From NCBI GenBank assembly GCA_900542235.1, contig UQNB01000001.1, positions 3,838-67,837 of the forward strand: DNA of 64,000 nt, written 5' to 3'. Positions 28,706 to 42,620 of this stretch are shown piece by piece. How positions within the stretch are numbered: the first letter of the stretch is position 1; each line of letters begins with the position of its first letter. The stretch comes from an uncultured Collinsella sp. Lineage in GTDB: Bacteria; Actinomycetota; Coriobacteriia; Coriobacteriales; Coriobacteriaceae. The notes under the pieces are model-generated. The model saw nothing but the letters and a program-made list of their open reading frames with translations. It was not told the origin of the DNA and searched no databases. The translations under genes and the position numbers were made by a program.

Positions 28706-29001
28706 CCTTGAATTGACTAGGACCTCTGCAAAGGGGTCCTTTTCTTTTATGTAGGGTTCTGCGGAAACTGCGTCCCAGAATAAGGGCTCAGAACGGGACA
28801 CACTTTCCGGTGCCTGCCTTTGGCGCGCGTACACACCTCGTCGCACCATTCCGAGCCCGCCCGCCCCAGACATTCCTCCCACTTTCGCGTCACTTTGCAG
28901 ACCGTTCGGTCGCCTGTCCGCACACGCGGGTATACTCAAAACGATACTTATCCTATGCAATACGATGCAGGCTCGACCTGCATGATTCGAAGGGGGCAGT
29001 G

Positions 29002-34540: not shown

Positions 34541-34627
34541 GCGGGCGTGGCGGAATTGGCAGACGCGTACGGTTCAGGTCCGTATGGGGGCAACCCCATG
34601 AAGGTTCAAGTCCTTTCGCCCGCACCA
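34541..34627 (+). tRNA. tRNA-Leu (CAG), class II with long variable arm
   Basis: Acceptor GCGGGCG/CGCCCGC, anticodon loop UUCAGGU, extra-arm hairpin, encoded CCA. Terminator follows. Confidence 0.85.
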
Positions 34628-34726
34628 TTGATTGAAAGAGCTCCCAGCAATGGGAGCTTTTTTGTTATGCACGATCTCCTTGGACGGGTATCCTAATGCC
34701 AACGTGTGCCTATCAGAGGAGAGACC

Positions 34727-39340: not shown

Positions 39341-39417
39341 GCGGCGTTACCTCAGCTGGATAGAGGGTCTGACTACGAATCAGAACGTCATAGGTTCGAA
39401 TCCTATACGCCGCACCA
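39341..39417 (+). tRNA. tRNA-Arg (ACG)
   Basis: Acceptor GCGGCGT/ACGCCGC, anticodon loop CUACGAA, T-loop GGTTCGAATCC, encoded CCA. Terminator follows. Confidence 0.85.
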
Positions 39418-39469
39418 ATTGAGATTAAAGCCTCCGGCAACGGGGGCTTTTCTTTTACGTAAACACCGC

Positions 39470-39646
39470 ATGGATTCGAACCTCGGTCGAGGCGCGGGCG
39501 TAAGGAAAACGCGGAGCGTTTTTAGCCCGCGGGCGAGCACGCCGGCAGGCGGCCGAAGCCGGTGCGGATCCGCGAAGCGGATACGCGGAATCCTATACGC
39601 CGCACCAATTGAAATTGAAGCCTCCGGCAACGGGGGCTTTTTTGTT
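39470..39646 (+). mobile_element. tRNA-Arg-linked structured insert (~118 nt) plus a 57-nt direct repeat of the tRNA-Arg 3' end and terminator
   Basis: 39588-39646 repeats 39398-39454 with 3 mismatches. The insert begins with GGATTCGAACC, the reverse complement of the tRNA T-loop, and is ~70% identical to the insert after tRNA-Ser. Confidence 0.6.
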
Positions 39647-39731
39647 ATTGACTCGTGTAAGATTCCGAGTAAGCGTCTCGGTGCACCTGGGGCGCGCCCT
39701 TTCTTTAGACGACCGATCAGGGTGATATTTC

Positions 39732-42173
39732 GTGGCAGAGCGTCCGACTTATAAGCTCAAGTTTCTCGATCCCAAGAAGCGCTTTCCGGTGATGCCCGAG
39801 CAGCCTGCAGGGCGCTCGTATGGCGTTGTTTGGAAACTCTTTGGCGACGATCCGCACGAATCATGCTACGCCGTTGAATTCGTCGGCAAGAGCCATGTGT
39901 CACTTTTAGGCTACGTGAGCGTTTCGGGCGAAGTGTACAAGGTGGACCGCCCCGTTAGCGAGGCGCCGTTGCCCGATGATCCCGATATGCAACTGGTTCT
40001 TGATGAGTCCGACTCCAGCATTGGCGAGATTGCGGTAAGGGGCGCCGATGGGACGATGCGTCCCCGGGCGCGGGTCATCGGCTCTCCAAAAGGCCCTATG
40101 CGCGAGCAGTCCGACCGCGAGACATGGAATTCGGCCCGCAGCCTCCCTTACGGTGAGTTCATGGCATCTATGTTCTTGCGCTACGTGATATTTGCCGACT
40201 CCGAAAATGCTATTGCGACCACGGCAGACACCCATAGGCTCGACGAGAGCATGCACAATGTCGTCGACAAGATCAAACTCGTCAAGCTGCCCGAGCCAGT
40301 CGAAGTGCTGCTGGGCTTTGATTCGACGCCGCTTCCCGATGCCATCGAGACGTTGCTCTACCGCATTGACCATACGGATAATCCGAGCGGCATCGAGCGC
40401 TATGCCGCGGCCTTGATGGGCGAAGTCAATCTGCCTCGTCTGCGTACCATAGCGACAAAAACCGAAATGAGCTTGGCCCGTATCGACCGTTCAAAGCTCT
40501 TTTACCTCAATTTCGATCGCAGCCTGCTGGATCAGGACGAGATCGACACCTTGCTTGCCATTGAGTGCCGCCTGAACCGCCTCTCGGGCATTCTTGAGCG
40601 TATCGGAGCCGGATTGGCCCCTGTCGCCTCATCGCCAAGCTTTGAGGGTTGCTCGCTCTTTGATCTGTGGCACATCTCTAAGACGACCAACGATGTTCCT
40701 CGCTTGCTCGAAACGCTGTCGAGAGACAACCCGTGGGCCAAGCCGGGAACCGTTTCGTGCCAGCCGGGTGGCGAGTGGGACGTGCGCACCCGCTTTGCAC
40801 GAATTGTCGAGGCGCTCAACGTGGTCACGCGACTCGACTATACCTATCGTGTCAACGTTGCCGAGGGGATTATGCGCGTCCAGTTTGGGCACTCTGTCGT
40901 TGGTGCCATGCCGCAGCGTGAATATGACGCTCAGGATGACGCCTGGCGCGAACTGGACGAGGACGTGCGTGCGGCGTGGGCCGCGGAGCACGACGCGCGC
41001 GTGGCGCTTACGCTTGCAGCGGCTTGCTTTGCCGCGGGTGCCTGCATCACGCGCTGCTATGTGCAGATTGAGGCTCCCGACAACGAGCGGGATGTGAACA
41101 TCGTCGCAACGTATTCCTTTGCCCGTGCCGAGTATTTTGCCGATTGTGTTCCCGTCGCCAAGGATCTTGAGAGCATGGGTATGGACGATATGCCGTGCAA
41201 GCGCATGCTTGAGGCATATGAGGCGACCACGCCGGATATGATTGAGCCTGCTGAGGTCCACGCTCGCCCGCGTGACGACCATCGTCCGCTGCCGCCGGCG
41301 TTGCGCGACCTGTTGCTTGCCGATACGGCTGACGAGTTGGAAGTTATGGAAGAGGATGGCGACCCGTACGTGGCGCGCGTCGTTGAATTGCGCGAGCAGT
41401 CTAAAACTGACCGTGCAGGTGCATTCGAGGGCTTTTCTCGTTTGGCCGAGGAGCTGGAGGCCAAGTGTGCCGTTGCCGAGCTCTTGGCAACGGGGCCGGT
41501 CCAAACGCAGTTCTGCGACAACCAGTTGGTACGCATGGTGCTGCCGGTGATGGAGGAGGATCGTTCCGTGCGCATTCTGCGCGCGCCCGATGCGCTGTAC
41601 TTTGCCCAGCACGAGATTTGCAGCTTTTATGCCGAACAGGAAGATTTTGAGCGCGCGTTGCCCGAGGTGCGCCGCCTTTACGATTTGGCGCGCTCGTCCA
41701 TGCAATCGCATTTTGCGCTGATTAACGTGCTGGCGCGCCTGGAGCGTTTTGACGAGGTTATCGAGGTGGCCCGTCACGGTTTGCGCATCGCGAGCGATCG
41801 TCCCTCGATCGGCTACCTGTTTTACCGTTTGGCATTTGCATACTGGAACTGCGATCAGCTCGAGCTGGCGCTGGCGTGCTACCGCCTCGTGCCGCGCGGC
41901 GAGGAGTCGGGCAGCAGCGCGCTGGAGGAAATGCAGGGCCTCATGAACGAGATGGGCATCAATGAGCCTCCGACGTTCGATGATGCGGTTGAGACCATCC
42001 GCAAGGCGGGGCTCGAGTTGCCGCCGGTGCCCGCCGTGACCAACCAGCTGGCGGATGCTGCCGTACAACTCGTTGATAACGGTTTCTTCTTCCTGGCGCG
42101 CGGTTGCATCTTCCAAATGTGGCGTACCATGGGTAACGACGAGCTCGGCTCCCTCAACCGCTCGCTGGGGTAG
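39732..42173 (+). CDS. large hypothetical cytoplasmic protein (813 aa), TPR-like C-terminal region
   Basis: Long ORF with coding-like codon usage. GTG start after GGGTGA; ATG 39792 is the alternative. No catalytic motif recognised. Confidence 0.6.
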   Translation: MAERPTYKLKFLDPKKRFPVMPEQPAGRSYGVVWKLFGDDPHESCYAVEFVGKSHVSLLGYVSVSGEVYKVDRPVSEAPLPDDPDMQLVLDESDSSIGEIAVRGADGTMRPRARVIGSPKGPMREQSDRETWNSARSLPYGEFMASMFLRYVIFADSENAIATTADTHRLDESMHNVVDKIKLVKLPEPVEVLLGFDSTPLPDAIETLLYRIDHTDNPSGIERYAAALMGEVNLPRLRTIATKTEMSLARIDRSKLFYLNFDRSLLDQDEIDTLLAIECRLNRLSGILERIGAGLAPVASSPSFEGCSLFDLWHISKTTNDVPRLLETLSRDNPWAKPGTVSCQPGGEWDVRTRFARIVEALNVVTRLDYTYRVNVAEGIMRVQFGHSVVGAMPQREYDAQDDAWRELDEDVRAAWAAEHDARVALTLAAACFAAGACITRCYVQIEAPDNERDVNIVATYSFARAEYFADCVPVAKDLESMGMDDMPCKRMLEAYEATTPDMIEPAEVHARPRDDHRPLPPALRDLLLADTADELEVMEEDGDPYVARVVELREQSKTDRAGAFEGFSRLAEELEAKCAVAELLATGPVQTQFCDNQLVRMVLPVMEEDRSVRILRAPDALYFAQHEICSFYAEQEDFERALPEVRRLYDLARSSMQSHFALINVLARLERFDEVIEVARHGLRIASDRPSIGYLFYRLAFAYWNCDQLELALACYRLVPRGEESGSSALEEMQGLMNEMGINEPPTFDDAVETIRKAGLELPPVPAVTNQLADAAVQLVDNGFFFLARGCIFQMWRTMGNDELGSLNRSLG

Positions 42174-42265: not shown

Positions 42266-42356
42266 GGAGAGCTGACCGAGAGGCCGAAGGTGCTCGCCTG
42301 CTAAGCGAGTATGCCCCAAAAGGGCATCTGGGGTTCGAATCCCCAGCTCTCCGCCA
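42266..42356 (+). tRNA. tRNA-Ser (GCT), class II
   Basis: Acceptor GGAGAGC/GCTCTCC, anticodon loop CUGCUAA, long variable-arm hairpin, T-loop GGTTCGAATCC, encoded CCA. Confidence 0.85.
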
Positions 42357-42407
42357 GTATGACTTGAAAGAAGGGTCCCATTTGGGGCCCTTTTTTGTGC
42401 GGAGAAA

Positions 42408-42620
42408 GGAGGCTGGGGATTCGAACCCGAGAGGGCACGGGCGTTAAGCAAACGCGAAAGCGTTTGTAGCCCGTGGGCGAAAAGCCGCCAGGCTTTGAAG
42501 CCGGAGGGCATGCGCAGCATGCCCGGACATCCCCAGCTCTCCGCCAGTACGAATTTGAAGAAGGGTCCCATTTGGGGCCCTTTTTATTATCAAGAATGGC
42601 GGCTGGGGATTCGAACCCTC
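42408..42620 (+). mobile_element. tRNA-Ser-linked structured insert (~121 nt) plus a 57-nt direct repeat of the tRNA-Ser 3' end and terminator, plus a 21-nt partial third copy
   Basis: 42529-42585 repeats 42339-42396. The insert begins with CTGGGGATTCGAACCC, the reverse complement of the tRNA T-arm/acceptor. Homologous to the Arg-linked insert. 42598-42618 repeats the insert's 5' end. Confidence 0.6.

Follow-up and report, generated by a model that had tools for sequence, protein, structure and literature searches.

The integrative elements of actinomycetes leave a direct repeat of the tRNA 3' end, which begins in the T-loop, and keep the target tRNA gene intact (PMC2440964). In Streptococcus salivarius, gene-less remnants of 130-220 bp flanked by attachment (att) sites were termed microCIMEs, and the most decayed copies were found most distant from the target gene (PMC7563491). 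In this study, we analyzed a DNA stretch of 64,000 nucleotides (nt) from an uncultured Collinsella sp. (assembly GCA_900542235.1, contig UQNB01000001.1, positions 3,838 to 67,837 of the forward strand; hereafter designated as the window), in which a short structured insert follows a tRNA-Arg(ACG) gene and is itself followed by a second copy of the 3' end of that gene. The microCIME is the closest named concept to this insert. We tentatively regard the insert as a member of a gene-less, non-autonomous, T-loop-specific cassette family, which resides at the tRNA and transfer-messenger RNA (tmRNA) genes of Collinsella and carries a folded, cis-acting module. The family, which comprises small, strongly conserved, hairpin-rich cassettes devoid of genes, is apparently undescribed. 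The initial annotation, made from the DNA letters alone, had suggested an undescribed family of miniature elements; the family was indeed found, whereas the general concept already bears a name, microCIME (PMC7563491).

The tRNA-Arg(ACG) locus in the window is laid out as follows.

39341-39417 (+): tRNA-Arg(ACG), intact (ARAGORN; 66 bits with Rfam; sequence)
39395-39401 (+): T-loop of tRNA-Arg, T54-T60, with nt 58/59 at 39399/39400
39400-39457 (+): B1, the first repeat copy, comprising tRNA-Arg nt 59-76, trailer, and terminator 1 (direct repeat; terminator scan)
39427-39450 (+): hairpin of terminator 1 (terminator scan)
39464-39589 (+): Arg module, ~126 nt, between terminator 1 and B2
39464-39484 (+): left end of the module, with the conserved CACCGC at 39464-39469 and then the antisense arm C
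39472-39477 (+): 5' strand (GGATTC) of the closing helix P0, which pairs with GAATCC at 39588-39593 (folds; sequence)
39481-39492 (+): P1, hairpin CCTC-GGTC-GAGG, 100% paired, 2 pairs changed on both sides
39493-39531 (+): P2, nested helix CGCGGGC/GCCCGCG around AAAACGC-GGA-GCGTTTT, 5 pairs changed on both sides
39532-39560 (+): P3, GGC/GCC enclosing CGCC-GGCA-GGCG, 4 pairs changed on both sides
39564-39586 (+): P4, 10-bp hairpin GCGGATCCGC-GAA-GCGGATACGC, 5 pairs changed on both sides
39587-39589 (+): conserved module end GGA (GGAC or GGAT in other types), joined directly to tRNA nt 59
39590-39647 (+): B2, the second repeat copy, comprising tRNA-Arg nt 59-76 (39590-39607), trailer, and terminator 2
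39617-39640 (+): hairpin of terminator 2 (terminator scan)
39654-39680 (+): possibly a very old decayed remnant (GTGTAAGATTCCGAG...), a low-confidence call from a weak inverted repeat

The direct repeat (39398-39457 and 39588-39647) is 60 nt in length and 93% identical. The initial annotation had recognized this repeat properly, albeit with 3 mismatches instead of 4 and with coordinates shifted by 1-2 nt. The true identity to tRNA-Arg starts from nt 59 (39400 and 39590), and the GA preceding it is at the same time the conserved end of the module. AGGTTCGAATCC at 39392-39403 and GGATTCGAACCT at 39472-39483 form a perfect 12-mer inverted repeat, and the latter is the exact reverse complement of tRNA-Arg nt ~51-62; the antisense T-arm reported earlier at the start of the insert is therefore real, but begins at 39472 rather than 39470. 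Its core, GGATTCGAACC, occurs five times in the window against 0.06 expected, exclusively at the Arg and Ser loci, and it is more than a curiosity, being part of a conserved functional module as an antisense arm that pairs with the duplicated nt 59-67. The nested stems described initially are present with support from covariation (see below), and the scan called both terminators. The CACCGC-type left end is common to the Arg, Leu, and tmRNA types, and P0 is 9-11 bp long in the Ser and tmRNA types. The flank holding GTGTAAGATTCCGAG is common to all Arg loci and also lies downstream of truncated copies in other genomes.

The pattern scan of genomes for the module retrieved at least 120 loci, all of Collinsella or Coriobacteriaceae and many of C. 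aerofaciens isolates, and a looser pattern scan of human-gut metagenomes retrieved at least 120 contigs. The window itself resembles C. aerofaciens. All family counts in this study rest on the 240 genome and gut-metagenome loci among the matches listed (individual loci and contigs are designated by L numbers). These 240 Collinsella loci contained ~300 copies, which lie downstream of at least seven tRNA/tmRNA genes: tmRNA (80 copies), tRNA-Arg(ACG) (57 copies plus 21 with a variant arm), tRNA-Ser(GCU) (48), tRNA-Leu(CAG) (26), tRNA-Gly(CCC) (26), tRNA-Gly(GCC) (9), and tRNA-Leu(UAA) (a single copy). The unit is ~190 bp in size, and the module accounts for ~125-135 nt of it. The initial annotation proposed a search for further copies next to tRNA 3' ends and for loci lacking the insert, and both were found, together with tandem arrays.

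Irrespective of the type, the 5' arm of the cassette reads as a reverse-complementary copy, 12-17 nt long, of the T-arm of its own neighbour. The cognate arms are GGATTCGAACCT for Arg, GCTGGGGATTCGAACCC for Ser, GGACTTGAACCT for Leu(CAG), CGCGGAGAATCGAACTC for tmRNA, GGGCTCGAACCCG for Gly(GCC), and CGGGACTCGAACCCG for Gly(CCC); that of Leu(UAA) matches in 16 of 17 positions with one G.T. Both arm and duplicate are cognate to the neighbouring gene in ~270 of the ~300 copies. As TTCGAA is palindromic, the arm could in principle have been copied directly from the 5' half of the T-arm. This possibility was excluded by Leu(CAG) and tmRNA, of which the arm loops, ACTTGAA and AATCGAA, respectively, are not palindromic and are the reverse complements of the corresponding T-loops; the arm is thus truly inverted. 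No tRNA-like gene or CCA end was found on the minus strand by ARAGORN, the apparent 'TGG' being flank sequence. Much of the arm specificity is explained by the pairing of P0 with the duplicate and the self-complementarity of the T-stem. The Leu(CAG) module is nearly identical to a variant of the Arg module except for a replaced segment of ~25 nt that covers the arm and P1, and its arm also tracks A57 of the target. This replacement points to a swap of specificity rather than slow co-evolution.

The junction is equally uniform. In all types, GCGGA(C/T) at the end of the module is immediately followed by tRNA nt 59, which places the junction at nt 58/59 in the T-loop. A variable extra C or T occupies the position of nt 58. 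The identity to the tRNA begins at nt 57 in the Arg and tmRNA types and at nt 59 in the other types, an overlap within nt 59-66 being possible. The right junction accordingly keeps 2-4 nt of the 7-nt T-loop. Since nt 59-76, in most cases together with the trailer and terminator, are present twice, the tRNA gene stays intact. Altogether, a module, a cognate arm, a cognate duplicate, and a junction that are shared among seven targets require a dedicated insertion process and cannot be a coincidence.

The same arrangement recurs in many independent C. aerofaciens isolate genomes and metagenome-assembled genomes (MAGs), as well as on long contigs, and the repeat copies differ in sequence from each other. 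We thus regard an assembly or collapse artefact that duplicated the tRNA 3' end, a possibility raised in the initial annotation, as practically negligible. What such an artefact may explain is ~9 copies in which the arm and the duplicate belong to different types, all of which are on short or low-coverage contigs (e.g., the MAG/metagenome contigs L053, L058, L135, L189, and L215). These copies are probably assembly chimeras formed through the shared module of ~100 nt, the alternative being a genuine recombination between cassettes at different loci.

The window contains a second cassette at tRNA-Ser(GCU), ~3 kb from the Arg locus. As the initial annotation noted, this locus shows the same layout with a homologous module, which is ~75% identical to the Arg module.

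42266-42356 (+): tRNA-Ser(GCU), intact, with nt 58/59 at 42338/42339
42339-42399 (+): Ser B1, comprising tRNA-Ser nt 59-76, trailer, and terminator (hairpin 42373-42390 plus a T-run; sequence, alignment)
42412-42528 (+): Ser-type module, with P2-P4 after P1 and the end GGAC at 42525-42528
42412-42428 (+): antisense arm GCTGGGGATTCGAACCC, a 17-nt exact reverse complement of the T-arm
42426-42435 (+): P1, CCC-GAGA-GGG
42529-42590 (+): Ser B2, comprising tRNA-Ser nt 59-76 (42529-42546), trailer, and terminator; 42529-42537 is the 3' strand of P0
42602-42618 (+): C2, a solo antisense arm (GCTGGGGATTCGAACCC) without module
34541-34670 (+): tRNA-Leu(CAG) and its terminator, an empty site for the cassette family in this genome

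The solo arm C2 is a remnant of an older unit. No module was found at the tRNA-Phe and tRNA-Leu(CAG) genes in the window, and the module showed no homology to tmRNA or to other parts of the window.

Occupancy varies among the relatives. The tRNA-Leu(CAG) gene is occupied in 28 of the 31 loci scored, being empty in the window and L031 and filled elsewhere with clean boundaries. About 13-15 of the 61 Ser loci scored lack the module, and all 13 'empty' Ser sites retain a solo antisense arm after the terminator. For tRNA-Gly(CCC), the contig L241, which resembles C. intestinalis, bears an empty site where the tRNA and terminator are directly followed by purB, and another Collinsella species (L243) possesses a strongly diverged homolog of the module in the same architecture. 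The two contigs came from a search for other genera via PurB; among the others, L242 and L244 lack tRNA-Gly(CCC) upstream of purB and L245-L247 were not scanned. Tandem arrays with a period of ~190 nt were found at Arg and tmRNA. Wherever intact and truncated copies coexist, the intact copy is proximal to the gene, as seen for Arg in L034, L063, L095, and L119, for tmRNA in L049, L071, L079, L083, and L117, and for Gly(CCC) in L144 and L154.

The duplication varies in length among the loci (12, 18, or 57-80 nt). The duplicate comprises nt 59-76 plus the local trailer and terminator in Arg, Ser, both Leu types, and the Gly(CCC) of L243, nt 59-76 plus an unrelated terminator in Gly(GCC) and the tmRNA of L094, exactly nt 59-76 (18 nt) in the Gly(CCC) of the aerofaciens group, and only 12 nt in most of the tmRNA loci. 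In L243, the proximal terminator resembles the native terminator of L241. The trailer alleles of Leu were examined as a means to tell which of the repeat copies is native, and the results were contradictory (L015 vs L023).

The genes for tmRNA and for the tRNAs of Arg, Leu, Ser, and Gly are favoured targets of integrases, and the initial annotation interpreted the locus as the footprint of a tyrosine recombinase. The loci would then be inert scars of the microCIME type, namely prophages or AICE-like islands that were reduced to attL, attR, and some DNA of the attP arms. Besides the choice of targets, this explanation accommodates the 3'-end direct repeats that start in the T-loop and spare the tRNA, as known for the integrative elements of actinomycetes (PMC2440964), and has a precedent in the gene-less, att-flanked microCIMEs of 130-220 bp in S. 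salivarius, which are most decayed farthest from the target (PMC7563491). On the other hand, the module is strongly conserved instead of decaying, and the identical module with the identical internal boundaries is found at seven different targets. The right junction retains just 2-4 nt of the 7-nt T-loop, and the duplicated segment usually spans the local trailer and terminator, which looks like a target duplication. Neither an integrase, a larger parent element, nor a phage or plasmid homolog was found in the neighbourhood, IMG/VR, INPHARED, and PLSDB. We consider the explanation based on inert scars very improbable, and the origin from a tyrosine recombinase was not borne out.

The comparison with the named systems leads to a similar picture. 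The cassette resembles microCIMEs in being gene-less, in having direct repeats of the att type at the target 3' end (60 nt at Arg, and likewise at six other genes) with no signature gene inside, in forming tandem arrays with the most decayed copy farthest away, and in the proposed dependence on enzymes supplied in trans. In contrast, microCIMEs derive from identifiable integrative and conjugative or mobilizable elements and stand in tandem with them, whereas no parent or companion was seen at the cassette loci. The decay typical of microCIMEs is also absent from the cassette, which shows low diversity and strong covariation (see below), and the conserved five-helix fold, the target-antisense arm, and the use of one module for seven targets are new relative to microCIMEs. 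With AICEs such as pSAM2 and SLP1 and temperate phages, the cassette shares the entry into the 3' part of a tRNA, the restored gene, the 3'-end repeat, and the tandem integration. It differs from them in its size (~190 bp), in the lack of integrase, excisionase, or any other gene, in a repeat that usually extends through the local trailer and terminator, and in a right junction without the complete T-loop.

We assessed the fold of the module with an alignment of 28 sequences from four types and a P1-P4 model of 39 pairs. Standard pairs made up 94.1%, and 16 of the 39 pairs (97 cells) had changed on both sides; none of 500 shuffles reached the observed values, and slid controls paired at 26-43%. 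The one-sided changes were all G.U/G.T with no A.C, indicating that the tRNA-sense strand is the one that folds. In a subset of the copies, a tandem G.A replaces two G-C pairs of P2. In the predicted folds, P0, formed by the antisense arm and the duplicated nt 59-67, closes the four hairpins; an alternative closing helix, CACCG/CGGTG, showed no covariation. The z-scores of the folds were -6.4 (Ser), -4.3 (tmRNA), -3.0 (Leu), and -1.7 (Arg), and the much-diverged homolog in L243 keeps the fold with a z-score of -3.4. GNRA loops occur in P1 (GAGA, GAAA, GCGA, GTGA, and GTAA; Ser and Leu) and often in the inner helix of P2 (GAAA, GTAA, GTGA, and GGAA), and C(GNA)G triloops, including GCGAAGC, occur in P4 and the inner helix of P2. 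As C(GNA)G loops are very stable in single-stranded DNA and acceptable in RNA, they do not discriminate between RNA and single-stranded DNA. In one tmRNA unit (tm_L022, around position 6235 of L022), the P4 loop is inverted, with TTC in place of GAA and the stem intact, as a flip of the palindromic hairpin would yield.

Nucleotide diversity (pi) among 38 Ser loci was 0.000 for the tRNA, 0.020 for the antisense arm, 0.013 for the module, and 0.009 for the duplicated nt 59-76, as compared with 0.10-0.16 for the trailers and terminators, 0.39-0.43 for the spacers, 0.06 for the solo distal arm, and 0.055 for the neighbouring coding sequence. The Ser-type module is thus about ten times less diverse than its flanks (0.013 vs 0.10-0.43), and the conservation extends as far as the CCA of the duplicate. 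Where terminator 1 meets the arm, the sequence is hypervariable (pi of ~0.4). The tmRNA type displayed the same pattern, and its truncated second copy is decaying. These values show that the complete unit is under purifying selection and is not a decaying scar, contrary to what the footprint proposed initially would predict.

Such constraint brings up another explanation, in which the unit is a host-functional, structured non-coding RNA that is transcribed by read-through from the promoter of the upstream tRNA or tmRNA gene and ends at the duplicated CCA or the second terminator. The RNA might, for example, participate in tRNA 3'-end handling, sense T-arms, or serve as a guide directed at elements with the same tRNA segment; it would have reached the seven loci rarely and long ago, and its present function would not be mobility. 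The strong covariation with one-sided changes confined to G.U on the tRNA strand, the GNRA loops in P1 and the P2 inner helix, the fold retained in a diverged species, the conservation restricted to the complete copy, its end at the CCA of the duplicate, and the gene-like terminator after each unit are all in line with an RNA. Above all, no other explanation accounts as well for loci that are single-copy, apparently inherited vertically, and very strongly conserved. Nevertheless, no promoter-like site was found before the module, and a terminator lies immediately upstream (~14-20 nt at Arg and Ser). The module is also dispensable, as its absence from a part of the Ser loci and from Leu(CAG) in this genome demonstrates, and most of the tmRNA copies have lost the tRNA-derived 3' tail, keeping 12 nt. 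The search against Rfam 15 at the gathering score and at E<=10 brought only tRNA hits to the threshold and nothing credible on the module, stable hairpins of single-stranded DNA typically have C(GNA)G loops as well, and a host RNA leaves the rule of cognate location, the nt 58/59 junction, and the arrays unexplained. The tRNA-linked structured RNA suggested in the initial annotation thus keeps a real chance on account of the strong covariation and the purifying selection, and a host-functional RNA is a serious rival, to which we assign a smaller chance than to the T-loop-specific cassette.

The extent of the duplication invites comparison with retroelements. In retroviruses and long terminal repeat (LTR) elements, the primer-binding site is 18 nt of a tRNA copied up to m1A58, the stop point in retroviral tRNA primers, and R2 elements insert by target-primed reverse transcription. 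In a retro-cassette resembling short interspersed nuclear elements (SINEs), an RNA consisting of the arm, the module, and the tRNA from nt 59 to the end of the transcript would anneal through its tRNA-derived 3' part to a nicked T-loop and be reverse-transcribed with the target as primer, and the RNA:DNA hybrid would set the long target duplication from nt 59 to the terminator. Consistent with this scenario, the duplicated stretch starts at nt 59 and stops where the terminator, and with it the transcript, ends, its length varying by locus; the duplicate of Gly(CCC) in the aerofaciens group is exactly nt 59-76; the extra C/T sits at nt 58, the position of m1A58 in retroviral tRNA primers; the sequence where terminator 1 meets the arm is hypervariable; and 5'-truncated distal copies exist at Gly(CCC). 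As the module has no promoter of its own, it would be transcribed along with the target, as R2 is within rRNA. The cassette therefore resembles LTR elements and R2 in a tRNA segment that starts exactly at nt 59, the lack of a promoter, and its position within the target transcript, but its segment is sense-oriented and usually runs into the trailer and terminator. Furthermore, no candidate for a reverse transcriptase or an endonuclease was found in the neighbourhood, copies are truncated at the 3' end at least as often as at the 5' end, the terminators of Gly(GCC) are unrelated to each other, and no SINE-like retro-cassette system is known in bacteria. A retro-cassette appears improbable to us, though marginally less so than inert scars.

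We return to the non-autonomous, T-loop-specific cassette, which we tentatively prefer at somewhat less than an even chance. In the process we envisage, a folded single strand, either DNA or RNA, would be the cis-acting substrate, the antisense arm would recognize the T-arm of the target by base pairing and thereby rebuild the target duplex, and an enzyme supplied in trans would insert the cassette at nt 58/59. Repeated insertion adjacent to the gene, coupled with unequal crossing-over, may then generate tandem arrays in which the intact copy is proximal and the distal copies decay, and recombination between the duplicated 3' ends may regenerate empty sites. GC skew is positive on the + strand, suggesting that the folded strand lies on the lagging-strand template.

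One candidate for the enzyme is a site-specific recombinase that acts on a folded att site. In integron attC and CTX-phi attP(+), one strand folds into an imperfect palindrome, and its stem reconstitutes a duplex recombination site. New integron cassettes enter next to a fixed site with the older ones being distal, IMEX use the host XerCD, and both IMEX and CALIN lack an integrase of their own. The recombinase fits the cassette because new copies would enter next to the gene, no integrase of its own is needed, and the stem would rebuild the target duplex. The single-strand fold, the compensatory changes, and the G.T-type one-sided changes on the + strand are likewise reminiscent of attC and CTX-phi. 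Yet, the cassette has neither the R/L-box consensus (GTTRRRY; RYYYAAC...GTTRRRY), a dif-like site, nor a nearby integron integrase, its P0 ends are derived from the target (GGATTC/GAATCC, GCTGGGGAT/ATCCCCAGC) and not family-wide, and its target is a tRNA T-loop. The other candidate is a target-primed, nick-and-copy enzyme that would duplicate the target from the T-loop to the transcript end. It fits because the local trailer and terminator are duplicated, the left junction is hypervariable, the duplicate is exactly 18 nt in one type, and the proximal terminator of L243 is similar to the native one of L241. Both candidates fit the data, and we do not decide between them.

A bolder version regards the cassette as programmable. 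In that case, a guide in the folded strand, i.e., the antisense T-arm working like the internal guide of an intron, would select the T-loop by pairing and be rewritten on a move to a new tRNA; the cassette would insert at nt 58/59 and duplicate the 3' end of the gene as far as the transcript end, on the basis of RNA or single-stranded DNA and possibly with the aid of a ribozyme or a reverse transcriptase. Guides are known in the internal guide sequence of group I introns, the exon-binding sites (EBS) of group II introns, the bridge RNA of IS110, and the ends of IS605. As in these elements, the cassette bears a target-complementary segment that extends across the insertion point, the specificity changes by a segment swap, and the order in the arm, 5'-[pairs nt 59-67][pairs nt 51-58]-3', corresponds to the P10/P1 arrangement. 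In contrast to introns, the cassette possesses no catalytic core (no Rfam intron hit at E<=10) and no terminal G or GUGYG/AY ends, as it terminates with GGA(C/T). In contrast to both introns and insertion sequences, it has no associated recombinase gene and leaves the tRNA uninterrupted. We regard the programmable version as unlikely, albeit not to the degree of a retro-cassette.

The inverted repeat of the cassette is target-specific and not family-wide, and its duplication is not short and fixed in length, both of which separate it from miniature inverted-repeat transposable elements (MITEs), which derive from DDE transposons. Retrons and other reverse transcriptase-linked non-coding RNAs differ in having an adjacent reverse transcriptase gene, which is absent here, where the gene downstream encodes an 813-aa protein without a Pfam domain.

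Several observations weigh against the cassette that we prefer. No candidate for an integrase, the lack of which was stated initially, or for a transposase or reverse transcriptase was detected in the window neighbourhood, in the additional DNA that other genomes carry, or beyond the tmRNA arrays on their downstream side. No larger autonomous relative was found among the 240 loci, in which all ~300 copies are of the short form, complete Collinsella genomes not having been scanned exhaustively, and the pattern scan of IMG/VR and blastn against the INPHARED phages and PLSDB plasmids gave no match. The presence and absence of the module can result from deletion between the duplicated 3' ends, so that ongoing mobility need not follow, and only about seven founding events are strictly required. 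A diversity ten-fold below that of the neutral flanks, in single-copy, apparently vertically transmitted loci, fits selection at the host level, as for an RNA gene, better than selfish maintenance. Finally, it is ambiguous which duplicate is native, given the L241-like proximal terminator of L243 and the different terminators in Gly(GCC) and the tmRNA of L094.

The genes around the two cassettes in the window are housekeeping ones, encoding MetRS, TatD, an SPFH protein, ProC, SerRS, a DD-carboxypeptidase, and a histidine kinase (10 proteins analyzed with Pfam), and the cassette itself harbors no gene, as the open reading frames across the ~190-bp unit are spurious overlaps. The gene for the 813-aa protein (39732-42173, +) always lies between the Arg and Ser cassette loci and shows 91-99% identity across Collinsella. 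The protein is Collinsella-specific, and one source annotates it as hypothetical/TPR; a search for other genera via this neighbour returned homologs of Collinsella only. Between positions corresponding to 42174 and 42212 of the window, L009, L012, L034, L038, L088, L092, and L111 carry extra DNA of 1.4-1.9 kb, which exists in two unrelated versions on either strand, flanked by short inverted repeats (CTGTTACAGATTGAGA). This insertion was considered as an autonomous element and rejected, as it encodes AAA-type ATPase genes. We also rejected an island downstream of the tmRNA arrays, which contains only repeats resembling repetitive extragenic palindromes (REPs) and a patatin-like gene. The REP-like palindromic family (GGGACGCGCTTTCC...GGAAAGCGCGTCCCGGAATC, with a period of ~60-65 nt) is distinct from the cassette; its tandem arrays of up to ~8 units lie between the tmRNA cassettes and the patatin-like gene (L003, L011, L017, L045, etc.), and one copy follows tRNA-Phe in the window (28757-28812).

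Variation in the target genes was also observed. The copy number of tRNA-Arg(ACG) ranges from one to three among Collinsella genomes (L007, L009, L012, L031, L103, etc.), the window having one, and each of the extra genes has its own distinct promoter region. One extra gene directly follows a truncated cassette made of the arm and the first ~21 nt of the module; the cassettes and the duplication of the tRNA gene thus seem to be linked. In L131 and L198, the Gly(GCC) cassette lies after the second tRNA-Gly(GCC), i.e., the gene following tRNA-Cys in a Gly-Cys-Gly run; L131 has a third Gly(GCC) copy, then tRNA-Val, further downstream, and the first and third copies are without a cassette. L031 and L006 possess an AT-rich insertion of ~300-370 nt just after the terminator of tRNA-Leu(CAG), which is absent from the window (34665-34700). 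With its long terminal inverted repeats (TGGTCAAAAAGTGGCATATATGAGTACTG ... CAGTACTCATATTTGGCCTTTTTTGACCA), this insertion resembles a MITE and has no relationship to the cassettes.

The cassette family accounts for much of the structural variation at the tRNA loci of Collinsella, such as the copy number of tRNA-Arg, assembly breaks, and chimeras. If the unit is a host RNA, it would represent a new RNA family with five helices under strong constraint, which in a very abundant gut bacterium is coupled both physically and structurally to the 3' ends of tRNAs. If the programmable version is correct, a dominant human gut genus would possess a nucleic-acid-guided integration system that is safe for tRNAs. 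If the cassette is what we tentatively propose, an element of less than 200 bp would enter the tRNA genes of Collinsella harmlessly at a defined nucleotide, with the choice of the target written in ~17 nt of its own sequence. It would then add a new type of site-specific element to the class without integrases, which includes IMEX, CIME, and CALIN, and could point to a trans-acting enzyme with guide-like programmability.

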